Below are positions 1-15,425 of a DNA stretch of 64,000 nucleotides, piece by piece. The stretch lies in assembly GCF_905479755.1 (NCBI RefSeq), contig NZ_CAJQNT010000009.1, positions 7,844 to 71,843 on the forward strand, given 5' to 3'. The notes under the pieces are model-generated. The model was not told the origin of the DNA. It did not search any database and saw only the letters and a program-made list of their open reading frames with translations. The position numbers and the translations under genes were made by a program. Source of the DNA: an uncultured Schumannella sp. (GTDB lineage: Bacteria > Actinomycetota > Actinomycetes > Actinomycetales > Microbacteriaceae). Numbering within the stretch: the first letter of the stretch is position 1; every line of letters starts with the position of its first letter.

Positions 1-1150
1 GCGGCGCAGCAGCGACGGTGAGATCAGTGGCCAGAGAGAGAAACGCGGTCACCCCAACGCTCAGTGCGACACCGCCCAGCAGCACCAAGACGAGTGACTG
101 CGTGGGCGTGGCCAACGCGATACCGAACAAGCCGATGCTCGCGGCCCCCAGACCGAGGACGATGACGCGCGGTTTCGATAGCCGGGTAATGAGGACACTG
201 GCCAGAATCGCGCCGCCGATCCCGAACACGGCCATCGGAATCATCGCCAGCGACGCCAGCAGCGGAGAGAGGCCGAGCACGAGTTGCATGTACTGAGCCA
301 GCGACATATTCGGCCCGGTGAGCGCAAACATCCCGACCGCGACGATCAGCAGTCCGAGCCTGACGCCAGGCACGCGGATCAGGTCGCGGTCGATTAGGGG
401 ATGCCGTGCACGGCGCTGATGCCACACGAACCCGGAACCGGCTGCCAGCGTGAGAGCGAGAAGAAGCCACTCGGGCACACCCCAGACGCCGGAGGCTGCT
501 TGCTTGAGCAACGCCATCGCCGAGACCACCAGCGTGAGACCGATCAGAGCACCGACGAGGGGCAACGGCGCGGGCGTCTTTGCACGAGACTCCGCTACCC
601 ACAGTCGCAACCCGAGCAGCAGGAGCACCACGACAGGGGCATTGATGATGAACACCGACCCCCAGGGGAAGAACTCAAGCAGCCCGCCAGCGACCACCGG
701 CCCCAGCGCACCGCCCGCCGCGAACGCTGCCGTCCACAGGCCGATGGCTCTGGCGCGTTGCTGTTCGTCGGTGAACGTCGTGCGGATGAGCGCGAGCGTC
801 GAGGGCATCAGCGTGGCACCACCGAACCCCATCATCGCGCGAGCGAAGATCAGCCACCCCGCGGAGGTCGAAAACGCCGCAGCCAACGACGCGAGACCGA
901 ACAGCACCGCCCCGATCACGAGCAGGCGGCGGCGTCCGATGCGATCCCCGAGCCTGCCCGCCGGAATCAGCAGCGCAGCCAGGACGAACCCATACACGTC
1001 CATGATCCACAAAAGTTGCGAACCAGACGGACGCAACTGCTCACTCAGCGAGGGCACCGCGAGGTAGAGCACCGTGAGATCCATCGACACCACCACAACC
1101 GGCAGCAGCAACGTGGTCAGGGCCAGACGCTGGCGTGTACTCATCTTCAT
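1..1150 (-). CDS. MFS drug-efflux transporter (DHA2/EmrB-QacA-like), 3' end cut by window edge
   Basis: Absent from the ORF track because the frame stays open to position 1. Reverse complement from ATG (comp. 1148-1150) reads MKMSTRQRLALTTLLLPVVVVSMDLTVLYLAVPSLSEQL...LIPAGRLGDRIGRRRLLVIG, i.e. MFS TM1 plus the cytoplasmic loop motif. It is still hydrophobic at the edge (...LSVGVTAFLSLATDLTVAAAP). Divergent from a MerR gene. Confidence 0.75.
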   Translation of the reverse strand, partial: MKMSTRQRLALTTLLLPVVVVSMDLTVLYLAVPSLSEQLRPSGSQLLWIMDVYGFVLAALLIPAGRLGDRIGRRRLLVIGAVLFGLASLAAAFSTSAGWLIFARAMMGFGGATLMPSTLALIRTTFTDEQQRARAIGLWTAAFAAGGALGPVVAGGLLEFFPWGSVFIINAPVVVLLLLGLRLWVAESRAKTPAPLPLVGALIGLTLVVSAMALLKQAASGVWGVPEWLLLALTLAAGSGFVWHQRRARHPLIDRDLIRVPGVRLGLLIVAVGMFALTGPNMSLAQYMQLVLGLSPLLASLAMIPMAVFGIGGAILASVLITRLSKPRVIVLGLGAASIGLFGIALATPTQSLVLVLLGGVALSVGVTAFLSLATDLTVAAAP

Positions 1151-1165
1151 ACCCACGACGCTAGA

Positions 1166-1185
1166 ACTTGAACATTGGTTGAAGT
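1166..1185. promoter_or_regulatory. imperfect palindrome ACTTGAAC-ATTG-GTTGAAGT in the MFS/MerR divergent intergenic region (possible MerR operator)
   Basis: 6 of 8 positions pair between the two half-sites. It lies between the divergent starts at 1150 and 1203. MerR regulators typically bind a dyad inside the promoter spacer. Confidence 0.25.
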
Positions 1186-1202
1186 CAAGCCATGCTGGAA
1201 GC

Positions 1203-1583
1203 ATGACTATCATCGAGACTGACGCGCCCGAGTTGCTGACGGTCGGCGAGACGGCTGAACTCAGCGGCACCGCGACCTCGGCGATCCGCTTCTACGAGCG
1301 GCAAGGGCTCATCGAGTCACAGCGCACCTCCGGCAACCAGCGCCGTTACCAGCACTGGGTTCCCTGCGTGGTTCGCGTAGCCCGGGTCGCCCAGCGCGTC
1401 GGGTTGTCCGTGCAGGAGATCGCCAAGGTGCTGGAAGACGTTCCGGACGAGCCGACCCCCGAGGACTGGCAACGACTGACCGACCACCTCATCGCCGATG
1501 CTGAACGCCGGATCGCCGAACTCCACGCCGTGCTCGCAGACCTGAAATCTGAAACCAAGCGCTGCGACCTTCCCAGTCGCTGA
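1203..1583 (+). CDS. MerR family transcriptional regulator
   Basis: Internal ATG of ORF 1074..1583. MTIIETDAPELLTVGETAELSGTATSAIRFYERQGLI...RRY is the MerR N-terminal HTH, followed by a C-terminal coiled-coil-like helix. No SoxR-type Cys cluster. Confidence 0.8.
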   Translation: MTIIETDAPELLTVGETAELSGTATSAIRFYERQGLIESQRTSGNQRRYQHWVPCVVRVARVAQRVGLSVQEIAKVLEDVPDEPTPEDWQRLTDHLIADAERRIAELHAVLADLKSETKRCDLPSR

Positions 1584-1637
1584 CTCCCGACTCCTACATT
1601 CGAACTCGCGACCCTCTACGACAGCGCCGTCGTTCCT

Positions 1638-1660
1638 GCCTCAGTTTGCTGAGGCTTTTT
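1638..1660 (+). terminator. hairpin plus T-tract downstream of the MerR gene
   Basis: GCCTCAG-TTTG-CTGAGGC followed by TTTTT. Confidence 0.5.
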
Positions 1661-1774
1661 CGAGCACCTGATATTTCCCCCACACGTCTGGCACTAAGAG
1701 TGCGGGCCGCGCGCTGCGCGCGCACCTGACCCCCGAGATCGTCCCTCCTGTGACGGTCTTGGGGAGGGGCCGTC

Positions 1775-4700
1775 GTGGTGATGACCATCCGGGTCATGTC
1801 GTCCGGCAAGGGCTACGAGTACCTGTTGAAATCCGTTGTCGTTGGTGATGGTGATCGGGAGATGAGCAGCCCGCTGACCCGGTACTACACCGAGTCCGGC
1901 TGCCCGCCCGGAACGTGGGTCGGCACCGGCCTGATGAGCCTCGACGACGGGCGCAGCTCAGCGTTGGCCGAGGGCGACACGGTGACCGAGGAACACCTGG
2001 CCCGACTGCTCGGTGATGGCATCCACCCGGTCACCGGCGAGAAGCTTGGCAAGAGGTTCCCCTCGCTGCAACCCCCGCGCGAGCGGATTGCGGCCCGTAT
2101 TGCACGACTTGACGCCGACTTGCGAGGCGAGGCACGGACCGAGGCTGTGGATCGCATTCGCGAGGAGGAGGTTGCGAAGAAGCCGCGCACCGCCGTTGCA
2201 GGGTTCGACTTGACGTTCTCCCCGCCGAAGTCGGTCAGTGCGATCTGGGGCTTGGCCGACGCGGGAACGCAAACGCTGATCGCGCAGGCGCATCACGCCG
2301 CGATGCGCGACACGATCGCGATGCTGGAAGATCGCGTCACCGCAACCCGCGTAGGCGCGGGCGGTATCGCGCAGATGCCGATCATGGGCGTGATCGCCAC
2401 GGCGTTCGACCACTACGACTCCCGAGCCGCCGACCCGCAACTACATACGCACGTCGTGGTGTCGAACAAGGTGCAGGGCGAGGACGGACGGTGGCGCACG
2501 CTCGACTCCCGCCGACTACACAAGGCCGCTGTCGCTCTCTCCGAGTCGTACAACGCCTTCGTCACCGACCACACCGCGCGGCTTCTCGGCGTGACGTGGG
2601 TGCCGGTCGACCGGGGCAAAGACCGCAACACCGGGTGGGAGATCGAGGGCGTACCGGCAGAACTGATCGCGGAGTTCTCCCGTCGCACCACCGGAGGCGT
2701 TGACGGTAGGGAGGGCATCGAACAGGTCAAGAACCGGCTGATCGAGCAGTACGTCGCTGAGCACGGGCGGCAACCCTCGGCGGCGACGATTGCGAAGCTC
2801 CGCCAGCAGGCGACCTTGGAGACCAGGCCCGAGAAAGAACTGCACTCACTGTCCGAACTCACCGCCGACTGGCGTGCGCGAGCCGAGGTCGTACTCGGTG
2901 AGGACGCAACTACGTGGGCACAACACCTGCTCGACCGGGGTGCGACCAAAGCCCGACTCCGCGCGGATGATCTCGGGCTGGAGCAGATCGAGGATCTCGC
3001 ATCCGTGGTGCTGATGGAGGTAGCGAACAGGCGTGCAACCTGGGGGCGATGGAACCTGCACGCCGAGACGATGCGGCAGATCATGGGTGTCCGGTTCGCA
3101 ACCACCGACGACCGTATCCGCGTGCTCGATCAGATCGTCGCGCACGCCGAGGCCGAATCGCTCCGGCTCACCCCGGACTACGACCGCGCCGTACCCGCCC
3201 ACTACATCGAGGGTGAGGGCAACAGGTTCCAGCTGGTCGATCAGATCGCATACTCCAGCCAAGACATCCTCGACGCCGAGCAGCGCCTCCTCGCGCACAG
3301 CCAGCGCACTGGCGGGCCAGCACTGACGGCGCGGCTCGTCGCACGTCACACTTCCCGCAAGATCAGGGGCGTCCGGCTCGACCCCGACCAGACCATCGCT
3401 ATCACCCGCATCGCCCGCTCCGGGCTGACCCTCGATCTGCTCGTCGGCCCCGCCGGTTCCGGCAAAACCACCGCGCTGCGTGCCCTGCATCGGGCATGGA
3501 CAGCAGCGCACGGGCGCGACTCAGTGATTGGCCTCGCACCGTCAGCAGCAGCCGCCGAAGTGCTCGGCGACTCGCTCGGTGTTCGGGCGGAGAACACCGC
3601 GAAGTTTCTCTACGAACACCACCACGGGCGTTGGAACCTCGAAGCCGGGCAGCTCGTGCTCGTGGACGAGTCCTCCCTGGCCGGAACTCTCGCGCTCGAT
3701 CGGATCACCGAGCACGCCGCCGAGGTCGGAGCCAAGGTCGTGCTCATCGGCGATTGGGCGCAGCTGAGCGCGGTCGAAACAGGTGGGGCGTTCGGGATGC
3801 TCGTCCGCCACCGCGATCAGGTTCCCGAACTCACCGATGTGCGCCGCTTCGCCAACGACTGGGAGAAGACCGCGAGCCTCAGCCTGCGACACGGAAACAC
3901 CGACGCGCTCGACGACTACCAGGCGCGCGGCAGACTACTCGACGGCGACGCCGAGACGATGCTCGACAGCATCTACGAGGCATGGCGCACCGACCGCGAC
4001 GAAGGCCTGCGCACGCTGATGATCGCGGGCACCGGCGAGATGGTCGCCCAACTCAACGAACGCGCCCGCGCCGACCTGATTGAAGCCGGACAGGTCGAGG
4101 CCGATGGCCTGCGTCTGCACGACGGCACCACCGCAGGCGTTGGCGATCTCGTCGTCACCCGGCTCAACGACCGCCGCCTGTCCGCCGGCAGAGCGTGGGT
4201 CAAGAACGGCGACCGTTGGCAGGTCACCCGCCGCTACGGCGACGGTTCGCTCGCTGTGCGCCGCTTGGGGCGCGGCGATCAACCTCACGGCAAGGCACTC
4301 GTGTTGCCCGCGAGATACGTGCGTCAGGAACTCGAACTCGGCTACGCCTCCACGGTTCACCGTGCCCAAGGAGCAAGCGTCGATACCGCGCACGCGCTGG
4401 TTGATCCCGAAGCCTCGTCACGGGAGTCGTTCTACGTGGCGATGACGCGCGGCAAGCTCCGCAACCATGCCTACGTGATCGTGCCCGACCCGCACGAGGT
4501 CGAGCCGCATCTCGACCAGCCTGAACTGCTGACCCTGACAGACCGGCTCGCCAAGGTGCTCGCCCGAACCGACGCCGACCTGTCCGTGACCGAAACCTTG
4601 ACGCTCGAGGTAGACCGGCACGCCTCGCTGTCCACGCTGCTGGACGAGTACGACGTGCTCGCCCGCGAAGCACAGACCGACCGCTGGGCCACGCTGCTCG

Positions 4701-5332
4701 ATGGCGCACCGTTCCCCGAGAACGTGGCCGACGACGTGTTCACCAGTCCCTACTATGAGCACTTGGAGAGCGCACTCGCGCGTCACGAGGCAGCCGGCCA
4801 TCTCGCCGCGGTCGCGCTCACCGCGCTCGCACCGAGGATCACACCGGGCGAAGACCAGGCCGACCCCGCCGCGCAGCTGGCTGACATGCTCGACCAAGCC
4901 ACTCAGAAGCTCCGGCCCGGTAAACGAACCAGGGTACGAGTCGCCGGACTCATCCCGACGCCCGCCGAGCCGATCGCGTACGACATGCAGACCGCACTCA
5001 CCGAACGGCAGAGACTCATCGAAGCCGCCGCAGGGCGACTCGTAGATGAGGCACAGAGTGTCGGAGCAAGCTGGGCCTCACGACTTGGCAAGCCTCCGAC
5101 CCAGCCAAGAGCGCGAACGCAGTGGCAGGCGCACGCGGTCACCATCGCGCTGTATCGATACCGCTACGAGGTGACCGGCTCCTCGCCATTGGGAGAGGCC
5201 CAGAGCGTCCGCACGCCCGAACAAGCGGCCGAACACCGGACAGCGCGGTCCGCCTTCGCTCAGCTCCGGCAGCTCAGCACACGCACCGACAGCTTCCAGC
5301 GCCCAAGCATCGACCGTGTACGCCGACTCTAG
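1775..5332 (+). CDS. MobF-family conjugative relaxase with C-terminal helicase (TrwC/TraA-like)
   Basis: N-terminal relaxase motifs: GKGYEYLL, TRYYTE, and the His-triad HYDSRAADPQLHTHVVVSN (2411-2467). Helicase Walker A VGPAGSGKTT (3443-3472); VLVDESS; C-terminal TVHRAQGASVD. RBS GGGGAGGGG at 1761-1769. The start could be GTG 1775, GTG 1778 or ATG 1781. Confidence 0.85.
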   Translation: MVMTIRVMSSGKGYEYLLKSVVVGDGDREMSSPLTRYYTESGCPPGTWVGTGLMSLDDGRSSALAEGDTVTEEHLARLLGDGIHPVTGEKLGKRFPSLQPPRERIAARIARLDADLRGEARTEAVDRIREEEVAKKPRTAVAGFDLTFSPPKSVSAIWGLADAGTQTLIAQAHHAAMRDTIAMLEDRVTATRVGAGGIAQMPIMGVIATAFDHYDSRAADPQLHTHVVVSNKVQGEDGRWRTLDSRRLHKAAVALSESYNAFVTDHTARLLGVTWVPVDRGKDRNTGWEIEGVPAELIAEFSRRTTGGVDGREGIEQVKNRLIEQYVAEHGRQPSAATIAKLRQQATLETRPEKELHSLSELTADWRARAEVVLGEDATTWAQHLLDRGATKARLRADDLGLEQIEDLASVVLMEVANRRATWGRWNLHAETMRQIMGVRFATTDDRIRVLDQIVAHAEAESLRLTPDYDRAVPAHYIEGEGNRFQLVDQIAYSSQDILDAEQRLLAHSQRTGGPALTARLVARHTSRKIRGVRLDPDQTIAITRIARSGLTLDLLVGPAGSGKTTALRALHRAWTAAHGRDSVIGLAPSAAAAEVLGDSLGVRAENTAKFLYEHHHGRWNLEAGQLVLVDESSLAGTLALDRITEHAAEVGAKVVLIGDWAQLSAVETGGAFGMLVRHRDQVPELTDVRRFANDWEKTASLSLRHGNTDALDDYQARGRLLDGDAETMLDSIYEAWRTDRDEGLRTLMIAGTGEMVAQLNERARADLIEAGQVEADGLRLHDGTTAGVGDLVVTRLNDRRLSAGRAWVKNGDRWQVTRRYGDGSLAVRRLGRGDQPHGKALVLPARYVRQELELGYASTVHRAQGASVDTAHALVDPEASSRESFYVAMTRGKLRNHAYVIVPDPHEVEPHLDQPELLTLTDRLAKVLARTDADLSVTETLTLEVDRHASLSTLLDEYDVLAREAQTDRWATLLDGAPFPENVADDVFTSPYYEHLESALARHEAAGHLAAVALTALAPRITPGEDQADPAAQLADMLDQATQKLRPGKRTRVRVAGLIPTPAEPIAYDMQTALTERQRLIEAAAGRLVDEAQSVGASWASRLGKPPTQPRARTQWQAHAVTIALYRYRYEVTGSSPLGEAQSVRTPEQAAEHRTARSAFAQLRQLSTRTDSFQRPSIDRVRRL

Positions 5333-5414
5333 GTAGGGGTTGGTTCTGCCTGCGCGAGGACGTGTGTCTCTCGTACACTGATGACATGTGACCGTGCTCG
5401 CGAGGAGGAGTTCC

Positions 5415-5519
5415 ATGTCGATAGAAGCGGACGCCTCCAGACAGGGTGGCTCCCAGCTCTCAGGCCCATCTGGTGTGGATATTGCCAGTGGGGACAGAGC
5501 GAGGCGGTGGCTGAAGTGA
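5415..5519 (+). CDS. hypothetical 34-aa upstream ORF, translationally coupled to the PHP-ATPase gene
   Basis: Strong SD GAGGAGGAG (5402-5410) lies 4 nt before ATG 5415. Peptide is MSIEADASRQGGSQLSGPSGVDIASGDRARRWLK. Its TGA (5517-5519) overlaps GTG 5516 of the next gene (GTGA). Below the ORF-track length cut-off. Confidence 0.3.
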   Translation: MSIEADASRQGGSQLSGPSGVDIASGDRARRWLK

Positions 5520-8155
5520 TTGACACACAATCATCTGGCGACGACGGGTCGCGTGGTGCGCGCTGGGTTCGTGCGGCTCTGCAGGTGAACCCATACGGGT
5601 ATGTTGGCAACCCTTCGCCCTCCAAGAGCTTCGCCGATGAGGCGGCCTACAACGCTGCACTGATCGTCGAACTAAAGGCTCAGCAGATCGAGCTAATCGC
5701 GATCACGGACCATTGGAACGCGAGTAGTGCGTCTCAGCTCATCGTCGATGTGGAGGCTGCAGGCATCGTCGCACTTCCTGGCTTCGAGGCGAACACCTCT
5801 GAAGGCATCCACTTGCTGGTGATATTCGAACGTGGCACAGCGATTGAGCAGATCACTGCGGCGATCGGCGCTTGTGGGTTGACGCCTGGTGCGGCGAAGG
5901 GCACTACGAAGAAGTCTTACGGCGACATTTTGACGGATATGTGCGGGCGAGGCGCTTTAGTTATTCCGGCACATGCCAACGTCGCAAACGCCGGGCTCCT
6001 GAGTCGAGCCAAGGGCGACACTCTCGCCGAGATGGTTAAGCACCCAGATTTGCTCGCCATCGGCATCACCCCCTCCGCAGCCCCGCTTGGCGATCAGATC
6101 AAGATCCTCAAGGGCACCAGGCCCTACGATCGGCCGCACTCGCTCGTTGCCATTCATGCAGATGATGTATCCGATCCTGCGACCCTGGCCTCTGCTGGTG
6201 CGAGCACTTGGTTCAAGATGAGTAGTCCGAGTTTGCTTGGACTTCGCCACGCAGTGAAGACACCAGAGACGCGGGTTAGCACAGTCGATCCGGCATCGAC
6301 GTCACGCGTGCTGCTCCGCGAAATTTCATGGGATGGCGGCTACCTCGACGGCCAGAGGATCTATCTTGCTGAAGACCTCACGGCGCTCATTGGCGGTCGA
6401 GGTACTGGTAAGTCCACTGCTATCGAAAGTCTCCGCTACGTGTTGGAGATTTCGCCTATCGGTCAAGCATCAAGTGATGACCACAAAGACATGGTCAAAA
6501 ACGTGCTCGGCGCTGGAACGGTAGTCTCGCTTGTTGTGGACGTGGTGACTCCGAGTCCCGCACGTTTCACGATCGAGCGCACCATCAACAACCCGGCAAT
6601 AGTCCGTGACTCCAGCGGTACGCAAACAAGTCAGCGGCCACGCGATGTTGTCGGAAACCTTGAGATCTTTGGTCAACACGAACTCGCCGAGCTGGCCCAG
6701 GACAAAGACCTCATGGCCGAACTGGTCGCGAGAGTGGCAGGAAAGCCAACGTCGCCCGCCGAACGAGATCAGCTTCTGAAAGACCTGGCCGACAATCGGG
6801 ACGATATCGCTAAGCACGAGCGGGATCGCGAAGCGTTGGAGAACGAACTCGCAGACATTCCGCGCCTTACCGAGAGCATGGAAGCCTTCGAGAAGACCGA
6901 CCTTGCGGCGAAGCTTGACCAGAAGACCCGGCTTGATAAGGACGAGGCGGTGCTCACCGAGGCGTCTGAGCGAGTCCAGCAGGTTGAAGACTTCATTAGT
7001 GGATGGGGGCTTGAGGCTCTGAGTGAAGAGCTTCGCGCTGAGCTCGCTGATGTCGATGACTCTCCACGTAAAGGTACTTTGCAGCAACTCAAGCCAGTGC
7101 TCGATGCGCTCGCCAAAGTGTTGGAGCAGACTGCCGCAACGGCGCGTTCCGCCGTTGACGATGCGAAGAAGAAGATCGAAGCGACCGAGCAGGCTTGGAA
7201 AGACGGGACCAAAACTGAGAGCGACGGTGTCGCGGCCGTTCTGCGTGAGTTGGTCGAACAGGGGCACAAGCCTGATGAGTACCTGACTCTGCAGTCGAAT
7301 CTGATTCGGCTGAAGAAGCGAGCGGAAAAGCGGGCTAACTTCGACAAGGAAAAGAAGAAGCTCCTGGGGGCGCGAGCCAAGTTGCTCCGTCAGCTCTCCG
7401 ATATCGACAAGAAGACCGCGTCCGATCTCAAGAAGGCCATCAAAGCTTCAAACGAGGCAACTGCGGGTGCTGTCATAGTGAAGCCGATCGCCTCGCCGGA
7501 TCGAAGCCAGATCAAAGCGGTAGTCTCCAAGCACTTCTCGACCCAACGTAGTCAAATATTCTCGGCCATCGATAAAGATGACTTCAGTGTCGCGGCATTC
7601 GTGGCGGCTGCGCGATCAGGCTTAGACGCTATCTCTGCGCTGGGTATCACTGGGGCTCAAGCGAAAGCCATCGTCGAGTGCGGCGAACCTCTGTTCCGGG
7701 AGTTCGAAGAGCAGACCGTTGGATTGGCAGTGGAGGTGCAGCTGAACGTCGCCGTCAAAGGTCAGCCAGCGACCTGGCGTCGCCTTGAAGACCTATCGAA
7801 GGGCCAACGAGCGACTGCCCTCCTGCTGCTCCTGCTCGGAGCGTCGATGAGCCCTCTGGTCATCGACCAACCCGAGGACGATCTGGACAACCGATTCGTT
7901 TACGACGGAGTTGTCCAGAAGCTGCGATCGTTGAAAGGAACTCGGCAGCTGATTGTCAGTACGCACAATGCTAATGTTCCCGTTCTTGGAGACGCCGAGT
8001 TGGTTGTGACGCTCGAGGCCGATGGACAGCGTGGGCGAACAGTTGCCGATGGCGTCGGATCGCTCGATGACCCGACGGTCCGAAAGTACGCGGAAGACCT
8101 GCTCGAAGGCGGACGTGCGGCGTTCGACGCACGAAAACGCCTCTACGACTTCTGA
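5516..8155 (+). CDS. PHP-domain phosphoesterase fused to a Rad50/SMC-like ABC ATPase
   Basis: PHP-like motifs: ITDHWN (5702-5719), LPGFE, EGIHLLVIF, VIPAHAN. Walker A GGRGTGKST (6392-6418). A long charged Leu/Glu/Lys-rich insert. Signature-like LSKGQRATALLLLLL (from 7793). Walker B LVIDQPEDDLD (7856-7888). STHNANV. The track start ATG 5381 has no SD, so GTG 5516 coupled to the uORF is preferred. Confidence 0.75.
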   Translation: MIDTQSSGDDGSRGARWVRAALQVNPYGYVGNPSPSKSFADEAAYNAALIVELKAQQIELIAITDHWNASSASQLIVDVEAAGIVALPGFEANTSEGIHLLVIFERGTAIEQITAAIGACGLTPGAAKGTTKKSYGDILTDMCGRGALVIPAHANVANAGLLSRAKGDTLAEMVKHPDLLAIGITPSAAPLGDQIKILKGTRPYDRPHSLVAIHADDVSDPATLASAGASTWFKMSSPSLLGLRHAVKTPETRVSTVDPASTSRVLLREISWDGGYLDGQRIYLAEDLTALIGGRGTGKSTAIESLRYVLEISPIGQASSDDHKDMVKNVLGAGTVVSLVVDVVTPSPARFTIERTINNPAIVRDSSGTQTSQRPRDVVGNLEIFGQHELAELAQDKDLMAELVARVAGKPTSPAERDQLLKDLADNRDDIAKHERDREALENELADIPRLTESMEAFEKTDLAAKLDQKTRLDKDEAVLTEASERVQQVEDFISGWGLEALSEELRAELADVDDSPRKGTLQQLKPVLDALAKVLEQTAATARSAVDDAKKKIEATEQAWKDGTKTESDGVAAVLRELVEQGHKPDEYLTLQSNLIRLKKRAEKRANFDKEKKKLLGARAKLLRQLSDIDKKTASDLKKAIKASNEATAGAVIVKPIASPDRSQIKAVVSKHFSTQRSQIFSAIDKDDFSVAAFVAAARSGLDAISALGITGAQAKAIVECGEPLFREFEEQTVGLAVEVQLNVAVKGQPATWRRLEDLSKGQRATALLLLLLGASMSPLVIDQPEDDLDNRFVYDGVVQKLRSLKGTRQLIVSTHNANVPVLGDAELVVTLEADGQRGRTVADGVGSLDDPTVRKYAEDLLEGGRAAFDARKRLYDF

Positions 8156-8199
8156 TAGCACATGCCAACTTCATCGCTGCCCGCTGCGAAGACAGCATC

Positions 8200-9384
8200 A
8201 TGACGGACCAGCCCGAGCCTTCACGACATCAAGAGATTAGTGCGGTTGCGCAGCAGATGCTTGCTCTCGGCGAGTCGGGCCGCTACGAGTTCAAGCGCGA
8301 CGTTGAAGCTGTCTCGGTCGGTCTTCTCGCTGCCCTCGCAAACTGGGTGGCCGCTGAACCGGACCGCGAGGTCGCCCACCTTGTCGTCGGGGTAGATGAG
8401 GTAGAGGACAAGACCACGGGGCTCGTGCACGGGCAACCTTTCGGATTGCCCAGAGGTCTCGATAAGGCCGTATCCCGTATTCAAGACGTGGCGAGCAAGA
8501 CACGACCAGTCCCGGTCGAAGTCTTCATTGTGGAGGAGGGAGTAGCCGAGCCAACGCCGTTCGTCCGCGTAGAGGTGCGCCCGACCATGCCGCCACACTT
8601 CGATGACCAGGGCCGTCGCCAAACGCGGCAGGGCCGTTCCACGCGCGCGCTGACAGATGAAGAGCTGCTACGCATCTACCTGGACCGCGAAGCGGGTAGT
8701 TTTGCGATGCGCTTCCGTCAGGTCAGTGATGAACTTCGTTCAGCTGTCGGCGCCGTGGGCAGTCAGGTCGACCAGATCGCTGAAGGGATCGAGAACAACG
8801 TCGCTACACCAATCCTGGCGCTCACCAGAACCACACACGACGCCGCAGACGCAGCAGAGTCTGCCTCATCTTCCGCAGACTCCGCTGCGTCTTCAGCCGA
8901 TACCGTGTCCTATGAAGTCGAGCATGTACAACGCATCGTTCGTGAGCTTCAGCGAGTCGTCGAGGACATCCAAGACGACTCCACTCAGAACCTGGCATAC
9001 AGAGTCATGCGGCTTCGGCGAAAGGTCTGGTGGAACTTCACTGTCGACACCTGGGAGCACAAGTCCAAGCGCGCGGATCAGTTGGAGTCTCGGCTCCGTG
9101 AGCTTCTCTCCGGCGAGGTCTCCCTTGAGGCAGACCGGAACACCTGGGAACTCCGAGTCTGGCAAGACCTACTCAAGGACCGCCGTGCACAGCGCGGTGA
9201 ACGCGGCACACAGAAGTGGTGGGATGCAGCAATCCGTGAGGTCATCTTGTTCATGGAGAGCCCTGCGTACGCCGCACCCGACCTGCCAGAGCTTCGTGCC
9301 GCGCTTAAGGCCGACCTCGACCACGAGATTGACGATCCCGATAGCGTGACGAACCTATTCCGCAGGCTCGTCGAAGACTCGTAA
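8200..9384 (+). CDS. AlbA_2 (Schlafen-type) DNA-binding domain protein with an unknown helical C-terminal half
   Basis: N-terminus ...LGESGRYEFKRDVE (ES at 8272-8277, EFK at 8287-8295) matches the AlbA_2 hallmark. It is followed by VAHLVVGVDE... The C-terminal ~200 aa is helical and Trp-rich with no motif I recognise. Lies 44 nt downstream of the PHP-ATPase on the same strand. Confidence 0.55.
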   Translation: MTDQPEPSRHQEISAVAQQMLALGESGRYEFKRDVEAVSVGLLAALANWVAAEPDREVAHLVVGVDEVEDKTTGLVHGQPFGLPRGLDKAVSRIQDVASKTRPVPVEVFIVEEGVAEPTPFVRVEVRPTMPPHFDDQGRRQTRQGRSTRALTDEELLRIYLDREAGSFAMRFRQVSDELRSAVGAVGSQVDQIAEGIENNVATPILALTRTTHDAADAAESASSSADSAASSADTVSYEVEHVQRIVRELQRVVEDIQDDSTQNLAYRVMRLRRKVWWNFTVDTWEHKSKRADQLESRLRELLSGEVSLEADRNTWELRVWQDLLKDRRAQRGERGTQKWWDAAIREVILFMESPAYAAPDLPELRAALKADLDHEIDDPDSVTNLFRRLVEDS

Positions 9385-9437
9385 GCAGTCACCCGAAGTA
9401 GTGGTGCTCCTGCTCACCGCGCCTTCGGTCCGTGACG

Positions 9438-9866
9438 TCACAGCAAGTCCTTAGTGTGCGTCCATACGGTCATCCGATGCACCTCGAACCTGCGGCAGAT
9501 GGAGACTACGCTCTCCCCGTTCGTGCGGGCAGTTCGGATAGCGTCTACTTGGCTCTCCGTGAGGGGTGTTCTAGATCGTCTCCCAGGGTTCGCGACAACC
9601 TCCGACTCATCCTCAGCGGCACCGTCTGGTTCGTCGCCGAGAACGAGTTTCGCCTGATTCCACGCGGAACTTAGCCGCTCGAACCTCTGCCAGGTGTTCG
9701 GTTTGAGTCCACCCGCGTCCACTCTTCGAAATGCCTGGTGAGGAGGTCTTTTCTCCGAGTTCACGTCCAGTTCACGGTTGGTGCCGTCAGGTTCCGTGCC
9801 AGACAGCGTGCCAAAAAGGCGATCGAATTGGGTCGTTCCGGACGCAAAACGGCCCCCGATGGTCAC
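9438..9866 (-). pseudogene. remnant ORF with a resolvase-type C-terminal HTH (serine recombinase fragment?)
   Basis: The C-terminus RRSRTPLTESQVDAIRTARTNGESVVSICRRFEVHRMTVWTHTKD resembles the HTH_7 tail of Tn3-type resolvases. The N-terminal 90 aa lacks the catalytic Ser domain. Confidence 0.4.
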
Positions 9867-9897
9867 TTCCGCCGAGGGCTTCCTGCGCGGGGTCAGA

Positions 9898-10315
9898 TCA
9901 GTTGGCGACTGCGCGCAACGCCGCGTCTATGTTGGCGGCGATCACTGCTCCGCGCTCGACCGCAGTCCGCTGATACAGCAGCACCGCCGCCGGGGTCGAA
10001 TGCCCGGCACGGGCTATTAGCTCGGGAATCGTCGCGCCCGACTGGGCTGCAAGCGTCAGTCCGGACGCACGCATGTCGTGGAACGTGAACTGTTCAAGCC
10101 CGACCCTCTTGCGATCACGCTTCCACGCACTCCGGAGTGCAGAGCGCGTCACCGCGCGCCCGTTGCAAGGAAAGCTGGAGACATGGTTTCGGCTTGCCGA
10201 GGGCCTGGACGTTGAACTGGCCACCGGTGTCTCTGCGTTGCATGGCTCTGGCCGCGAGCGCCGCCAAGCGGCAGGAACCTACTGCACGGCGAGATGTCGG
10301 GTCCGCCCGGCACAA
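9898..10315 (-). pseudogene. tyrosine recombinase/integrase, C-terminal catalytic fragment, apparently frameshifted and N-terminally truncated
   Basis: ORF 9898..10224 ends ...FTFHDMRASGLTLAAQSGATIPELIARAGHSTPAAVLLYQ, showing HxxR, the second His, and the nucleophile Tyr. A possible box-I-like piece (ORF 10115..10315, ...ARAMQRRDTGGQFNV) sits in another frame. There is no N-terminal domain before 10448. Confidence 0.6.
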
Positions 10316-10447
10316 ATCCGCCCGGTGTATGTCCTGGCTCGTATTCGGGAACTAGCGAGGCTTCGCTTCGTGATTTCGAGAAACGACGCGGTGCGCTCCT
10401 CGGCCGTCAGATCGACAGATGTCTTCGCCCGTCACTAGCTTTCTTGC

Positions 10448-12292
10448 ATGGAGTTCACCGCAGCCGAACTTGTCGCAGCGATTAGTGAGGTTGACACATC
10501 TGAGGTCATGCTTAGGGAGCCAGTAGAAGCATTCGGCGCGTTTCGCGAGCTGGCGGAGGGCTATCCCGAGGACGGTCCCCACCGAGTCGCGCTCGCGGCA
10601 CTGTCGAACGTGGCCGGGATGATGCTGAAGCCCGACCGCTGGGAATCCCCATACGTACCGATGATGCAGTTCGGGGATCGGCGGAGCTGGCTCCCAGAGG
10701 ATCTCACCGAGGTCCACATCGACTTCCTGCGGCAAGTGCGTTCGCAACTCCCGCCGGGTCAGCTTCGCGCACAGATAGTCGATGTCTTGTTCTTGCGGGT
10801 GACAGATGGTCGTGAACGATACGAGCTGGCGCAGGAGGTCGTACAAGCCTGGATCACGGTGGGGTTGCATGGAGAACTTGATCGAGAAGAAGAAAACGGT
10901 TGGCGTCGTGCAATTGAGATTGCCCTGCGATTCGGATTCGCCTCGCAGGTGACGGAACTTGTCGGCCTTGCGATGGAGCAGATTCGATCGGAGAGAGCAG
11001 CGCCCGCATGGCAATCCGCTCGCGTACTTCATGAGTCTGGTGCCGGACGTGAACACGCGGAGGAGATCAGCAGACGGCTGAGAGACCTGGCGGCCACGGT
11101 CGAGGATCTGCACTTCCGTCGCGAAATCCTCGATCAGGCGCGTCGGTGGGCGACGAGCAGTCAAGACTCTGCGGGCGTCGCCGAGATCGACGAGCAGCTC
11201 GGTGATCTCTGGTGGGAGGAAGCAAAGCGACGGAAGTCGTCATCGCACTTCCTGGCCAGAGACTGCCTTGGAAACGCATACAACCAGTACAAGCGCATCG
11301 AGCGGAGCCGGCGGTCGGCAACGACGAACCGAAGGCTCGCACGATTGCCGCGCAAAATTCGCGAGGAGGGGGAACTTGCGCTCGGTGAGATGAATGCTGT
11401 TGAGTCAGATCCCATCGATCTGACGGTGCTGAGGCAGCAAGCCGACGAAGTACTTAAGGAGGACGACAACCTTCGCGCCCTGGCTTCATGGTTCACTCGG
11501 GTCCCGCTTGATCCGGTCCAACAGGCGCGTGCAACCGCGGAAGAGTCGATGCGCGAACACCCCATTCAGCATCTGTTCTCCCGAACGACCGTGGCAACTG
11601 ATGGCCGAACGGTGCAGCACTCCGCGAGTGCTCGCGGGCAAGGGGAAGTCCCAGGCGATGTCTGGAGCGAGATGCTGCGCCACTGGGAGTTGAAGGTTGG
11701 AATTCTTGCCCACGGCTACATCTGGCCAACGCTCGTCGAACTGAGCACCAAGTACAAGCTCGCGCCCGGCGACTTCGCGCTAATGGTTCGATCCTCTGCG
11801 TTCGTCCCACCTGAGCAAGAGCGGCACTATGTGATGGCGCTCCACAACGGCTACTACGGCAGACTAAGCGAGTCGATCTTCGTGCTCGCCCCTACCGTCG
11901 AGGCGTGTGTCCGTGCGTGTCTGCAGAGGGCTGGGATCGAGACCAGGAACCATCGCTCGGACGACACCGAGATCGAACCAGGACTGAGTGCGCTGATGGA
12001 GCTGGATGGTGTCGATGACGCGCTCACACCTGACCTGGCCTGGAACATCAGAGCGCTCTACTGCGGGCCGCTTGGCCCGAACTTGCGCAACCGAGTGGCC
12101 CACGGGCTTCTCTCCGAATCCGAGAGCAGCAGTGGCTACGTGCTGTTCGCTTGGTGGCTCGCACTACGACTCGCGTTCGTGCCGTTCTTCAACCATGTGA
12201 TGGATGACTCAACGAAAGCTGAGGGCAGAAGCAGTTCAAAAGAAGAGCCAGAATCTGGACAGACCCCACCTCGTGATGATTCTGAAGAGTGA
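10448..12292 (+). CDS. large DUF4209-like protein with C-terminal Rx4H (HEPN/Abi_C-like) motif
   Basis: 614 aa. The C-terminal GPLGPNLRNRVAHGLLSESE contains RNRVAH (12086-12103), which I recall as the conserved core of DUF4209. The acidic tail is low complexity. No SD before ATG 10448. Confidence 0.5.
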   Translation: MEFTAAELVAAISEVDTSEVMLREPVEAFGAFRELAEGYPEDGPHRVALAALSNVAGMMLKPDRWESPYVPMMQFGDRRSWLPEDLTEVHIDFLRQVRSQLPPGQLRAQIVDVLFLRVTDGRERYELAQEVVQAWITVGLHGELDREEENGWRRAIEIALRFGFASQVTELVGLAMEQIRSERAAPAWQSARVLHESGAGREHAEEISRRLRDLAATVEDLHFRREILDQARRWATSSQDSAGVAEIDEQLGDLWWEEAKRRKSSSHFLARDCLGNAYNQYKRIERSRRSATTNRRLARLPRKIREEGELALGEMNAVESDPIDLTVLRQQADEVLKEDDNLRALASWFTRVPLDPVQQARATAEESMREHPIQHLFSRTTVATDGRTVQHSASARGQGEVPGDVWSEMLRHWELKVGILAHGYIWPTLVELSTKYKLAPGDFALMVRSSAFVPPEQERHYVMALHNGYYGRLSESIFVLAPTVEACVRACLQRAGIETRNHRSDDTEIEPGLSALMELDGVDDALTPDLAWNIRALYCGPLGPNLRNRVAHGLLSESESSSGYVLFAWWLALRLAFVPFFNHVMDDSTKAEGRSSSKEEPESGQTPPRDDSEE

Positions 12293-12624
12293 ATGATCCC
12301 CCTCCGGGCGGTGCTCTGAGCTGGGATGCTGGAAAAGGACCCTTGCCCCACTCGGCGCAAAGACTGCAAGTGGTGGTGACTCACCCATTCGCAACGCCCT
12401 CGGTGCAGGTGGATGGCCAGGCCCAGATCTCAGCTCCCGCTCGAAGGCCTACCCGGAGACTCTCCGGCTTGGTGTCGTCGCTCCGGCCTGAGGGTCCGAC
12501 GAGGGATTCGAGGCCGGGTGGGAGAGGCTGGAGCGCCCAAAGGCGCGGACCCCTACGGTTACCCCGTAGCTGGATCCTGCATCAATCACATAGTGAATGC
12601 AACTCGCGGACTGAGGGTCAGAAA

Positions 12625-13305
12625 CTACCGACTTGTCTGCGCATGCCGCTTGGATGCAGCCGCCCTGACCTCTCGGCGCAGGTCGGCGTGGTTGATGTCG
12701 CTCTCCAGCGCCTTCCGCCGTCGACCGTCCTCTTCGTCAAGCCAGCTCTGGAAGTCGGTCGCTGCCGCCTCAACGTCGGCCGCATTGAGCGCTGTCGCAA
12801 CACCGAGCGCTGCCTCCACCCACGACTCTTGCATCTCAGCCTCGGTGAGCACGGGGGCCGACTGCTCAAGGAACTGATTTAGCGGCAGGTCGAGCCGTGC
12901 ATGATCTCTGACGATCCGCTGCTGGAGGACCAGAATGCCCTGACGCGAGAGGGATGCGATGCGATTCTCCAGCTTCAGTGAGGAGGATGGGACAGCCGTG
13001 GTATCCAGAAACTTGGCCGCGTAGTGTTTCCCGTCTTCGCGCAGGTCAGGAAGGGGCATGACCCGGAGGTGACGATCCCAGTCGCCCACCTTCTCGTAGC
13101 TTCCCACCGGTGCGACCTGGATGCGCTGAACTAGTTGCACCCCGCGTCTCATGCTGCATGGATGCATGACGACCTGCACGGTCAGGGGCGTGTCACCAAG
13201 TCCGGGCACAATAACGTTCTCGAACACGTCGCCTTGAAGAATCGGACGCGCGTAGGAAACGCCGTTCCGTTCTTCGTAAAGGTCATCTGAGGTAATGGCA
13301 TCCAT
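12625..13305 (-). CDS. hypothetical protein (226 aa), last gene of the cassette
   Basis: Non-repetitive protein-like composition. Its start lies 9 nt after the stop of the upstream HTH gene. N-terminus RPILQGDVFENVIVPG...VQVVMHPCSM; no family recognised. Confidence 0.55.
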   Translation of the reverse strand: MDAITSDDLYEERNGVSYARPILQGDVFENVIVPGLGDTPLTVQVVMHPCSMRRGVQLVQRIQVAPVGSYEKVGDWDRHLRVMPLPDLREDGKHYAAKFLDTTAVPSSSLKLENRIASLSRQGILVLQQRIVRDHARLDLPLNQFLEQSAPVLTEAEMQESWVEAALGVATALNAADVEAAATDFQSWLDEEDGRRRKALESDINHADLRREVRAAASKRHAQTSR

Positions 13306-13314
13306 GCGGCCGCA

Positions 13315-13953
13315 TCACTTGCCTCGGGGGCGGATGATCCGCTCACCTGCAGCATCCACCACGACCTCGTAGTTGCTGCGGTGATCCCGCCAGCCCGGCA
13401 TCGCCTGGTCTAGGACGCTCTCGGCGTCCTGGCGTTGCTCAGCGATGTCGATGAGTGCCTCGGCATGCCCAGTGACGTACAGGTCGATGGGTCGAATGGT
13501 GTACCCGCTCGGGAGCGGGAGCTTCATTTCCATCCACTGTGCTGGGTCGGCGACGGCGCTTGTCTCCAGTACGTCCAGCAAGGCGGCAATCCGACCCAAG
13601 CTGTTTCGGTTCTCGGCACTCGCGGCACCACCGTTGCGCCACTTGCGGATAGCGGAGACGCTCACCCCGGCAGCAGCGGCGACATCGGACCAAGACATAC
13701 CGCGAGAGGAGGTCAGCTCTGCGAGCAGCTCCGGCACACCTGCGCTCGTTGCCTTCGCGTGCGCCCGGTCATGGAGGTCGAGCGTACGGGTGCGCCCGTG
13801 GAGCGCATGCACGTCGTCGCGGAGCAGGTCCACATCGGTTCGTAGCCACGACGCGCTGATGGAGATTGCACGGGTGGCGTTCGCCTCTGCGTAGTCAGAC
13901 GTCACAGCAGGCGCAATTGCGGTGGCCGTGGTGCGCTCAAGCGTGGAAGTCAT
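13315..13953 (-). CDS. XRE-type helix-turn-helix domain protein (212 aa)
   Basis: Central MSWSDVAAAAGVSVSAIRKWRNGG is an HTH_3/XRE-like motif. The start overlaps the upstream gene stop by 4 nt (13950-13953). Confidence 0.65.
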   Translation of the reverse strand: MTSTLERTTATAIAPAVTSDYAEANATRAISISASWLRTDVDLLRDDVHALHGRTRTLDLHDRAHAKATSAGVPELLAELTSSRGMSWSDVAAAAGVSVSAIRKWRNGGAASAENRNSLGRIAALLDVLETSAVADPAQWMEMKLPLPSGYTIRPIDLYVTGHAEALIDIAEQRQDAESVLDQAMPGWRDHRSNYEVVVDAAGERIIRPRGK

Positions 13954-14828
13954 TTTTCGCTCCTTCGGAACGTGTTGCGTGCATCGTCGGTGATGGAAGC
14001 TTGGAACGTGGCCCCCGACGGTCCATGCACAGCGTCAAGCGTGCTGGCGACCACATCAACGGACAACAGCGTGGCATCTGGTCCACTGAAGTCCTGGTAG
14101 CCATCCAGGTCGAGCACAAAAAAGGGCAAGTTCTGGTCGAACGGCGCGCGAACAAGCGCGGCAGGTGAGACCACAGCCCCCTGCGGGAGCGCAGCGAAGC
14201 GGAAGTTCAGTCCGCGATCCTGTCCGAAGTGATAGACCACGGTGCCTTCCGCCTGGAGCACCTCTGCGTCCGAGGGACCCAGGGCCAACTGGCCGAGCAG
14301 GCTTGGGTCAATCCACTTCGCCCAATCGCGGACGTTGGCGATGCCCGCATCGGGAAGTCGAATCTCATCGATGTACCGAAGACCGATACGCCGGATCGCG
14401 GGGGTCACGCCTGCCTCCACAAGCGCCCGGCAGCAGGTCAGAAGCTGCTCGCGGAACTCGGGGAAGTGAGAGTAGGCCGTCGTCTCCAGTGAGAGTCGAT
14501 CTGAGGTCAGCGTCGCCACGGCTGTACTTGAGGTGTTCTTGAAGTTGCGGCCGGGTGTCTGCCTGATCTGAGGCGCAGCACCGGGACGGACCTCAAAATC
14601 GGCCTGCTGGAACTGATCCTGGACGGGCAACATCGGCTCAAGCGCGATGGAGATGGCGTCAACGATCTCTTGTTGACGTAGGCGGGCGGAGTCGCTGAAG
14701 CGGACCTCCGCGGCCACGAGGGCGAGCGGTGAGGACGGGAACACTTCCCTGTGTGCGTAGTCCATAATCAAATCAGCGTAGTGGGGTTGAACCTGGATTC
14801 GCACCGAATCTCGCACCAGAACATGCAC
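13950..14828 (-). CDS. TIGR04255-like family protein
   Basis: IRRIGLRYIDEIRLP (comp. 14367-14396) and the N-terminal ...PLALVAAEVRF match my recollection of the TIGR04255 family. The track start is GTG 14828. ATG 14765 (MDYAHREVFPSSPL...) is the more likely start. Confidence 0.55.
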   Translation of the reverse strand: MHVLVRDSVRIQVQPHYADLIMDYAHREVFPSSPLALVAAEVRFSDSARLRQQEIVDAISIALEPMLPVQDQFQQADFEVRPGAAPQIRQTPGRNFKNTSSTAVATLTSDRLSLETTAYSHFPEFREQLLTCCRALVEAGVTPAIRRIGLRYIDEIRLPDAGIANVRDWAKWIDPSLLGQLALGPSDAEVLQAEGTVVYHFGQDRGLNFRFAALPQGAVVSPAALVRAPFDQNLPFFVLDLDGYQDFSGPDATLLSVDVVASTLDAVHGPSGATFQASITDDARNTFRRSEK

Positions 14829-14902
14829 CGATACTACGACCCGAACCTATCGAGAGGCTGTGAAGCCACGCGTCTGGAATGCGTTTGGGCGTTACTCCCG
14901 CG

Positions 14903-15088
14903 TTAAGACCGCCGAGCGCTCTCGACCAAAAGATGCACCGCGGTGGACTCGAACCTCACGTACCTTCCCACTTTGAGGAACTCGATCCGGCGCTCGCGGA
15001 CAAGACGACGGACGAAGCTCTCCGGGACGGCAAGCTGCTTCGCAACCCCGTCAATGGTCAACAGCGGATGAGCCTTGTTGTGGGTCAT
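14903..15088 (-). CDS. excisionase/AlpA-type HTH DNA-binding protein
   Basis: 61 aa. LLTIDGVAKQLAVPESFVRRLVRERRIEFLKVGRYVRF matches the HTH_17 excisionase pattern. RBS AAGGAGG lies upstream of ATG 15088. Confidence 0.7.
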   Translation of the reverse strand: MTHNKAHPLLTIDGVAKQLAVPESFVRRLVRERRIEFLKVGRYVRFESTAVHLLVESARRS

Positions 15089-15265
15089 CGGCGGACCTCC
15101 TTTCGTCTACTGCGCCGCCGACCCAACGCACGGAGACCAACGCTGTGCCAGATTTCGTGCCACTAGCACCGAAGACTTCTGGCACGCGGCGTTCAACGAC
15201 GCTCAGGAGACGGCGCTCGTCTCCAGAAACAACGGGGGTTCCGCTGGTCGGATTCGGGCCGCTTT

Positions 15266-15311
15266 CTGCTTTGCAAGCAGGAGGTCAGGGGTTCGATTCC
15301 CCTAGGCTCCA
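15266..15311 (+). other. 3' 46 nt of tRNA-Ala(UGC): anticodon stem-loop 3' part, T-arm and acceptor 3' strand only (att-site remnant)
   Basis: CTGC-TTTGCAA-GCAG carries anticodon TGC (15272-15274). T-arm is AGGGG-TTCGATT-CCCCT. The acceptor 3' strand AGGCTCC+A implies a G3:U70 pair. No complementary 5' acceptor strand or D-arm lies upstream. Confidence 0.7.
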
Positions 15312-15425
15312 CTCCGCCAGCTGACCCGCCGCCGCTCCTGCGGCGTGTGCCGCTCCGCGCACCGAGCGCGGTCGCTGCGCTTCGCGGGGGTTCGTCGCAC
15401 GATTGTCGTCGTCGGAGTCGGGGTC

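Follow-up and report, generated by a model that had tools for sequence, protein, structure and literature searches.

The window analysed here is a stretch of 64,000 nucleotides (nt) from an uncultured Schumannella sp. (contig NZ_CAJQNT010000009.1, positions 7,844 to 71,843). Its plus strand carries two neighbouring open reading frames (ORFs), ORF1 of 924 codons at 5381-8155 and ORF2 of 394 codons at 8200-9384, which a first-pass annotation had presented as an undescribed defence module: a PHP phosphoesterase fused to a Rad50/SMC-like ATPase, followed by an AlbA_2-type partner. Alignments, AlphaFold2 (AF2) models and Foldseek searches bear out this domain reading, with a PHP-like region and a coiled-coil ABC/SMC ATPase in ORF1 and an AlbA_2-type fold in its neighbour. 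Both genes belong to families found elsewhere, and on balance they appear to be separate cargo of a mobile element. The features of the locus are the following (aa, amino acids).

1775-5332, plus strand: TrwC-type relaxase/helicase gene, the upstream neighbour (Pfam TrwC 278 bits, AAA_30 193 bits)
5516-8155, plus strand: ORF1, TrlF-family gene, 879 aa, with a PHP-like domain, an SMC/Rad50-like ABC ATPase and a coiled-coil insert
5552-6295, plus strand: PHP-like phosphoesterase domain of ORF1, non-canonical, about residues 13-260 (alignment to the Ppl N-domain)
6392-6418, plus strand: Walker A motif GGRGTGKST of ORF1 (G293-T301, invariant in 32 homologues)
6758-7465, plus strand: antiparallel coiled-coil insert of ORF1, about residues 415-650 (helices of the AF2 model)
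7793-7975, plus strand: C-terminal ATPase lobe of ORF1 with signature LSKGQ, Walker B VIDQPEDDLD and H-loop STHNAN (invariant residues)
8156-8199, plus strand: intergenic gap of 44 nt between ORF1 and ORF2
8200-9384, plus strand: ORF2, 394 aa, with a Schlafen/AlbA_2-type N-domain and a helical C-terminal half (small actinobacterial family)
8242-8589, plus strand: Schlafen/AlbA_2 fold of ORF2, about residues 15-130 (Foldseek, hhalign), with the Ex4ExK motif at 8272-8295
8977-9381, plus strand: Trp-rich C-terminal helical bundle of ORF2, about residues 260-394 (AF2 model), a candidate sensor domain
9441-9722, minus strand: recombinase-like C-terminal fragment, 94 aa, at the element end (junction 9722/9723; blastn and protein identity to an ORF of locus L126)

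ORF1 scored 456.1 bits against the NCBIfam model NF045780 (TrlF family AAA-like ATPase; cut-off 350), with residues 58-922 of the 924-aa reading aligned to model positions 1-943 of 944. Judged by this match, ORF1 is a full-length TrlF-family protein; the anti-phage protein Ppl represents the sister family. Because the match to the TrlF model starts at residue 58 of the 924-aa reading and homologues measure 873-882 aa, we place the start at about GTG 5516 (alternatively GTG 5507), giving a product of 879 aa, and disfavour ATG 5381. Given this end-to-end match to a curated model and the many homologues already named TrlF in databases, ORF1 is not undescribed. It shares with its family the PHP-like region, the split ABC ATPase and the setting on plasmids, integrative and conjugative elements (ICEs) and in type I restriction-modification (R-M) operons. 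The suggested kinship with Ppl holds for both parts of the protein, the N-terminal domain (about 260 residues) aligning to genuine E. coli Ppl with 26% identity over 328 aa (E 4e-13) and the C-terminal lobe with 37% over 121 aa (E 2e-18). Ppl was also the best PADLOC match of ORF1 (113 bits), followed by weak matches to MADS3, AriA and LmuB. The NCBIfam models of Ppl (NF042955, 161.7 bits against a curated cut-off of 1000) and Spaf_1101 (184 bits against 475) stayed below threshold. In a Pfam scan AAA_21 alone exceeded its threshold, with SMC_N and AAA_23 weak.

The motifs named in the first-pass annotation were found in the translations where it had placed them (ITDHWN at 5702-5719, GGRGTGKST at 6392-6418, LVIDQPEDDLD at 7856-7888, and STHNANV), and the signature-like stretch LSKGQRATALLLLLL begins at 7793. 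Across 32 homologues the ATPase motifs of ORF1 are invariant, namely Walker A (G293-T301), the Q-loop region, the signature LSKGQ (S761-Q764), Walker B (I783-D791) and the H-loop STHNAN (S815-N820). An AF2 model built from the same number of homologues (predicted local distance difference test, pLDDT, 85.5; predicted template modelling score, pTM, 0.67) matched the heads and coiled coils of SMC, MukB, condensin, JetC, Rad50, RecF and LmuB in Foldseek at E values of 6e-13 to 1e-6; Rad50 chains matched at 2e-9 to 1e-6, and SMC, MukB and JetC scored better. The invariance of the motifs together with the match to SMC-type heads argues that these features are more than chance. The insert between the two ATPase halves is a coiled coil as proposed, of about 235 aa and not about 300, with long helices at residues 415-445, 464-496, 525-581 and 605-648 and arms of about 100 residues each. 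No cysteine was found in residues 415-650, so ORF1 is without a Rad50-type zinc hook.

The PHP-like domain is more divergent. Pfam PHP gave no match to ORF1 at E<0.01, and a profile of the window's TrlF clade reached the PHP protein 2yb1 at no better than E 0.09 in a profile search of the PDB; other TrlF members weakly match Pfam PHP and the models of CehA/McbA, nucleoside bisphosphate phosphatase and RNase RNM. The AF2 model of the domain shows alternating beta and alpha elements, and a Foldseek search for a PHP fold with the full-length model gave ATPase-head matches alone among the best 50 listed. In the residue-level alignment PHP motifs II-V are kept (ITDH, PGFE, GIH, PAH), together with an acidic ADD, and motif I has changed from HxH to ‘ALQV-NP’ (Q-V-N), the equivalent in Ppl being ‘DFHNHTP’. 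We sampled TrlF gene contexts from 80 loci, one genome per species (loci are given below by their L numbers). The Q-x-N form is present in 64 of these 80 loci, a count from a sample biased by the query, and the loci with TrlG, the AlbA_2 protein introduced below, are included. Because it is so common, we read it from the alignments as a conserved subfamily trait rather than decay.

The substitution takes the conserved form ‘ALQ(V/I)N(P/T)’ in a large TrlF subfamily (window 5570-5600, TrlF residues 19-29; also L024, L026, L039, L053 and L083). ‘DxHxHT’ is retained by Ppl, by E. coli TrlFs and by L073, L079 and L086, and both PHP types are found with TrlG partners. The PHP domain of this subfamily, going by its residues, may rely on a reduced metal centre or serve chiefly for binding and not for cutting, and the question arises whether these proteins are still nucleases.

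The first-pass annotation had further likened ORF1 to a single-chain SbcCD. The fold of the ATPase head agrees with this idea; the missing hook cysteine, the length of the coil and the PHP metal site do not. PARIS (AriA/AriB), Lamassu (LmuB) and SbcCD/Mre11-Rad50 likewise couple an SMC/ABC-type ATPase sensor to a nuclease, and ORF1 resembles them in its weak AriA and LmuB model matches and its structural matches to Rad50 and LmuB. It differs in its short coil and in lacking the zinc hook, and it comes with neither a Toprim nor an Mre11 partner. What ORF1 has in common with these systems is logic and fold, without membership of their families.

In the AF2 model of ORF2 (pLDDT 70.7) the N-domain, residues 15-130, is well folded, the C-terminal helical bundle is confident and a central Ala/Ser-rich helix is poorly predicted. 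Foldseek matched the N-domain to 2KYY (E 1.5e-4), the N-domain of a ‘RecG-related’ AlbA_2 protein, and to SLFN11 (2.5e-3) and SLFN13 (5.6e-3). The motif G-E25-S-G-R-Y-E30-F-K32 is present, and E25, E30, F31, K32, E67, E69 and D70 are invariant across 31 ORF2 sequences (62-100% identity). Human and prokaryotic Schlafen RNases share Ex4(E/D)xK as their catalytic motif (PMC5862951, PMC13056530), and in SLFN13 the third carboxylate lies about 38 residues downstream of it (PMC5862951). The Ex4ExK motif and the E67/E69/D70 acidic cluster of ORF2 agree with the catalytic motifs of SLFN13 and of prokaryotic Schlafens (pSlfns). As modelled, ORF2 thus has a genuine Schlafen/AlbA_2 fold with an invariant Ex4ExK motif.

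Beyond this domain ORF2 stands apart. Its C-terminal half, about 240 aa and helical, had no match by Foldseek, in Pfam or among PDB sequences, and a sequence-profile search of ORF2 against the PDB returned insignificant coiled-coil-like matches alone. No PADLOC or NCBIfam family model matched ORF2. The family is small: of 1.84 billion cluster representatives, 331 belong to it at E<=1e-3. There are 212 close homologues, the named ones all from Actinomycetes; NCBI annotates relatives as DNA-binding or helix-turn-helix (HTH) proteins, and none was found in viral contigs. A 23-nt inverted repeat lies inside the gene at window 8842-8897 (87% complementary, 10-nt loop) and encodes an Ala/Ser-rich segment (containing AADAAESASSSADSAASSAD), the least confidently modelled part of ORF2.

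Schlafen/AlbA_2 proteins have been described as stand-alone defence effectors (PMC13056530). In pSlfns the N-terminal Schlafen RNase is held inactive at first; once the C-terminal domain fused to it has recognised a phage protein, tRNA is cleaved (Perez Taboada et al. 2026, PMC13056530). A fused putative sensor domain is present in 97% of pSlfns, and in 17% the fused domain is unannotated, such fusions making up 558 clusters (PMC13056530). ORF2 resembles pSlfn (PMC13056530) and Cash (PMC13462974) proteins in its Schlafen/AlbA_2 fold, Ex4ExK motif, non-nuclease C-terminal fusion and defence-island neighbours. Its helical C-terminal domain, however, fits no named sensor class and would fall in the unannotated 17%, if caught at all.

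TrlF was named in the temperature restriction locus (TRL) trlR-trlF-trlG of Photorhabdus laumondii (Hapeshi et al. 2020, PMC7554251). There TrlG is an AlbA_2 plus HATPase_c_4 protein, and trlG mutations permit growth at 36 °C; trlF mutants were never recovered and the function of TrlF itself was not shown (PMC7554251). The first-pass annotation had held that an AlbA_2 partner of this kind occurs in no described system; trlR-trlF-trlG pairs the same ATPase family with an AlbA_2 protein, so a PHP-ATPase followed by an AlbA_2 protein is an arrangement already published (PMC7554251). ORF2 is like TrlG in its homologous N-domain and in its place directly 3' of a TrlF gene, but the homology stops at about residue 165. 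Aligned with 19 TrlG-type proteins by hhalign, the ORF2 family matched over the first ~165 residues only (probability 85%, E 6.3e-6), and BLASTP of ORF2 against TrlG gave 24% identity over 144 aa (E 0.03). Genuine TrlG scores 75.8 bits for AlbA_2 and 50.5 bits for HATPase_c_4; we looked for the latter domain in ORF2 and its family and found none, so ORF2, despite its AlbA_2 fold, is not TrlG. The window further differs from the TRL operon in that trlR is missing, the 183 nt between the relaxase stop at 5332 and the TrlF start at 5516 holding no HTH ORF, and in that its TrlF clade is normally without a partner.

Genes on the E. coli IncC plasmid pNDM10505 (L081, NC_019069.1 135072-146112), a carbapenemase plasmid, are ordered HTH (69 aa)-HsdR-TrlF-TrlG-HsdS-…-HsdM, which places a trlR/F/G-like trio within a type I R-M operon. 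Five loci of Actinomycetota have TrlF after HsdR-YgjP. An α/β-hydrolase gene (Hydrolase_4) lies 40-62 nt 3' of TrlF in place of TrlG in three loci from uncultured Cytophagia and unclassified bacteria (L042:5266-6399, L046:10755-11849, L059:10749-11822) and may be a different kind of TrlF partner.

The window and eight related contigs (blastn; L090 and L126-L131 among them) share homologous DNA from the relaxase up to window position 9722 exactly, beyond which each has different DNA; the shared DNA ends in CGCGTCCAC at 9722, inside a recombinase ORF. Because the shared DNA stops there and the flanks differ, relaxase, TrlF and ORF2 form the terminal segment of a mobile element. The trio is constant at an ORF2 identity of at least 98% in many contigs, a relaxase gene of 1183-1185 aa stands upstream of TrlF-ORF2 in L126-L131 too, and the element occurs in at least six different flanking contexts. 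Its hosts are Microbacteriaceae, Brevibacterium, Flaviflexus and relatives; the NCBI entry for the ORF2 sequence reads ‘MULTISPECIES … [Actinomycetes]’, and the index lists the sequence in 161 blocks of the collection. The ORF2 protein of the window is itself identical to one of an uncultured Schumannella. The mobile, low-GC context noted earlier is confirmed by the relaxase upstream and by a guanine-plus-cytosine (GC) fraction of 0.57-0.61 across ORF1 and ORF2 against 0.66-0.68 across the relaxase gene.

The last 282 nt of the shared DNA (9441-9722, minus strand) encode the C-terminal 94 aa of an ORF whose full-length form, a 651-aa large serine recombinase, occurs only in L126; the fragment is 82% identical to residues 558-651 of that Resolvase/Recombinase ORF (L126:7236-9191). 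The first-pass annotation had seen dead recombinase genes here. Recombinase sequence is indeed present, but the idea of a decayed gene was rejected: there is only the 94-aa fragment, and since fragment and breakpoint are the same in every copy they mark the element end and not local decay. The element end appears to lie within the recombinase gene. In L126 conjugation genes (type IV secretion system coupling protein) follow the full-length recombinase. A T-arm-like sequence at the junction 9722 was considered as part of a tRNA gene and dismissed, as ARAGORN reported no tRNA gene for the window or for six related loci. No structured RNAs or repeats were found across window 1-16000, and a plasmid megablast of the region gave no match.

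Just beyond the junction, a separate stretch of 0.61-0.63 GC (9723 to about 15400) holds a DUF7380 plus DUF4209 protein gene (10448-12292, plus strand) that matches the PADLOC candidate system PDC-S39 at 447 bits. From about 15400 GC rises to 0.70-0.77, and a LuxR/AAA_16 regulator is encoded at 15426-18167 on the minus strand.

Gene contexts beyond this element bear on whether TrlF and ORF2 belong together. The window's own clade (TrlF identity of 44% or more, mostly Actinomycetota) contributes 28 loci with sufficient flank, and neither TrlG nor ORF2 lies downstream of TrlF in any of them; ORF2 relatives sought by blastp and tblastn in the 80 TrlF loci were absent. The closest TrlF relatives are without ORF2: 87% identical in Cryobacterium (beside type I R-M), 83% in Microbacterium foliorum (beside a MobC/relaxase pair and GmrSD) and 80% in Dietzia. 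TrlF stands upstream of ORF2 only where ORF2 is at least 91% identical, and those TrlF proteins are 93-95% identical. Downstream of TrlF we found no AlbA_2-type partner other than TrlG; α/β-hydrolases, a HATPase_c_3 protein, an nSTAND3-Mrr protein and CysS were found there. Seen from the side of ORF2, about 13 of 15 independent contexts have no TrlF, as in the following homologues (identity to ORF2, context).

76%: integrase and TIR, no TrlF
65%: HsdR-YgjP-YobI-Abi_C, no TrlF
62%: Mrr, no TrlF
78%: no TrlF
75%: insertion sequence (IS) elements, no TrlF
67%: TrwC and HigB, no TrlF
65%: IS110, no TrlF
64%: NACHT-like, no TrlF
Various identities, seven metagenomic loci: no TrlF

Neighbours of ORF2-family genes comprise TIR_2, HsdR, YobI, Abi_C, Mrr_cat, TrlF, HigB and PDC-S39. 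Because ORF2 stands beside TrlF in one lineage only and most ORF2 loci have no TrlF, homologues of the two genes are essentially not syntenic elsewhere, and the module proposed at first does not stand as a unit; the one independent exception (L086) is considered below. A protein of ~238 aa, or a related one of ~215 aa, recurs beside ORF2 in eight loci, ending about 10 nt before ORF2 in four of them, and has no counterpart in the window. Its two subfamilies have ~70% identity within each, are weakly related to each other and have no Pfam match; this protein may be the real partner of ORF2 in those lineages.

Small neighbour of ORF2: L088:6272-6991, L097:7264-7977, L134:7275-7991, L117, L120; L125:5297-5947, L133:9252-9899, L119

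Genes for YobI-like P-loop NTPases with 89-93% protein identity are followed by TrlF in Ornithinicoccus (L004) and Timonella (L005), and by Abi_C, a 270-aa gene and ORF2 in Gulosibacter (L085). Since near-identical YobI genes precede one or the other, TrlF and ORF2 are alternative cargo of one type I R-M-linked hotspot. The region gives the impression of a defence hotspot, linked to type I R-M, in which cassettes can be swapped; a convergent HTH gene comes after the cargo in L005 and L085.

YobI-linked loci: L005:4282-11090, L004:943-7324, L085:1629-9960

On balance we favour the view that ORF1 and ORF2 are separable pieces of cargo, stacked one behind the other where a conjugative element with a TrwC relaxase ends, and not an obligate two-gene system. 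Several observations weigh against this view. A TrlG-type gene follows TrlF directly in 30 of the 80 loci (start at -46 to +42 nt), and TrlF-family ATPases accordingly have an evolutionary affinity for Schlafen-type partners. The 44-nt same-strand gap lies within the range of these genuine pairs and has no terminator-like site; a sigma-70-like site, also sought in 8156-8199, was not found. ORF1 and ORF2 are probably co-transcribed. The pair stayed joined while the element spread, and in Nocardioides sp. YR527 (L086) an ORF2 homologue (64%) adjoins, in divergent orientation, a 991-aa TrlF-family protein of a different clade (620 bits against the TrlF model, canonical HxH kept). The PHP metal site of ORF1 is incomplete, with neither the canonical HxH nor the last histidine, the terminal D-x-H reading ‘HADDVSD’ against ‘GSDAHH’ of Ppl. 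ORF2 reached 16.8 bits with Pfam SLFN_AlbA_2 (PF04326; gathering score 25.3), and among 31 family members 19 matched weakly (best E 5e-4) and none exceeded the threshold. Finally, the literature searched holds no demonstrated anti-phage phenotype for any TrlF- or ORF2-family member, and the only genetics there concern TrlG and a temperature phenotype (PMC7554251).

Part of this evidence fits a functional two-gene variant of TRL, in which TrlG has been swapped for a Schlafen protein with another C-terminal domain, TrlF serving as an ATP-driven sensor or keeper in the manner of AriA of PARIS and ORF2 as the released or activated nuclease effector. This is possible, and we think it rather unlikely. 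It draws on the TrlF-TrlG pairs, that of pNDM10505 included, on the N-domain that ORF2 shares with TrlG, on the gap without a terminator and on the Nocardioides neighbourhood, as well as on the weak AriA, LmuB and MADS3 ATPase matches of ORF1 and on the growth arrest in Photorhabdus, which was relieved by trlG mutations only, never trlF, and is compatible with TrlG as a toxic effector (PMC7554251). Yet the association is limited to a single lineage, in which TrlF is 93% or more and ORF2 91% or more identical, and one of the two co-occurrences is the finding itself and so subject to ascertainment bias. The closest TrlF relatives (80-87%) and the whole clade of at least 44% identity are without such a partner, all 30 TrlG-paired TrlF proteins being less than 44% identical to that of the window; ORF1 has the length of these solo relatives, with no added partner-binding segment. 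Most ORF2 homologues have another conserved small neighbour in place of TrlF, and in the YobI-linked hotspot the two genes substitute for each other.

It seems distinctly improbable to us that the genes serve the mobile element itself, by DNA processing or protection, by exclusion of competing plasmids or ICEs, or by regulation through a DNA-binding AlbA_2 protein. Their position directly after the relaxase at the element end would suit such a role, as would the ORF2 homologues beside TrwC relaxases in three further contexts (L094, L096, L133), the 83% TrlF beside its MobC/relaxase pair, the 811 conjugative plasmids among 1127 with TrlF relatives, and the DNA-binding or HTH labels of ORF2 relatives. 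But both families also occur away from relaxases in chromosomal type I R-M-linked arrays near TIR, Abi_C, Mrr, ApeA-like and GmrSD genes, the invariant Ex4ExK favours a nuclease over a mere binder, and ORF1 has an anti-phage protein as its nearest characterised relative. The best Foldseek matches (SMC, Rad50 and RecF heads) and the label ‘DNA repair ATPase RecN’ that some databases give to homologues could suggest a housekeeping SbcC/Rad50/RecN/RecF/SMC orthologue followed by an unrelated hypothetical gene. Such a reading is refuted for ORF1 by family scores and distribution and retains next to no probability: the NCBIfam SMC, RecN and Rad50 models gave 14-16 bits (cut-offs 400-730), and ORF1, patchily distributed and on a low-GC mobile element, has a PHP N-domain and no zinc hook, in line with the earlier opinion that it is no housekeeping protein.

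From family membership, folds, motifs and gene contexts we infer the biochemical activities and the defence role of the two cargo genes as follows. Ppl was reportedly introduced by Gao et al. in 2020 as a single-gene anti-phage protein. Ppl and ORF1 each join a PHP domain at the N-terminus to a coiled-coil ABC-type NTPase in a single chain, are homologous over both parts and are found on mobile elements; ORF1 lacks the canonical HxH and D-x-H-H PHP ligands that Ppl possesses. According to summaries of the original work, Ppl is an NTP-inhibited single-stranded DNA 3'-5' exonuclease sensing 3'-OH ends (Xu et al. 2026, summarised in PMC12904381, cited in PMC13434339). By analogy ORF1 probably works like Ppl, with the caveat of its metal site: the ATPase heads would come together as a dimer that detects DNA ends and/or nucleotide status, thereby licensing the PHP domain to degrade invading DNA. 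In its own clade ORF1 would work without a dedicated partner. In ORF2 the C-terminal helical domain would most likely be the trigger sensor, and its activation may lead to cleavage of tRNA or other RNA and so to translation arrest. The adjacency of TrlF and ORF2 would then be cargo stacking in one recent lineage.

The locus thus adds an actinobacterial, ICE-borne example of Ppl/TrlF-type PHP-ATPases and Schlafen-type nucleases, not a new defence system. The ORF2 family brings a compact Schlafen-type protein with a helical domain of no known relative, whose trigger could be sought in actinophage systems. The TRL locus, joining a Ppl-like ATPase to the commonest bacterial Schlafen architecture, looks like an unrecognised two-gene defence system and is widespread (30 of the 80 sampled TrlF loci), and we found no paper in the literature searched that links it with phage defence. 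Here we take the ‘HisKinase’ class of the pSlfn paper to be the TrlG-type AlbA_2 plus HATPase_c_4 architecture. The temperature restriction of Photorhabdus could be heat-triggered autoimmunity of a defence effector, a link between PMC7554251 and PMC13056530 that we found drawn in no paper. More broadly, and with considerable doubt, one may speculate that TrlF PHP-ATPases and Schlafen-type nucleases make up a general modular two-component immune system in which the ATPase responds to invader DNA or nucleotide status and keeps the Schlafen RNase under its control. If this were true, the window and Nocardioides loci would be partner-swapped versions whose Schlafen protein brings a new helical domain as sensor or adaptor, the arrest of Photorhabdus at 36 °C would be explained as effector autoimmunity, and it might become clear why the commonest bacterial Schlafen architecture gave no defence when tested alone.

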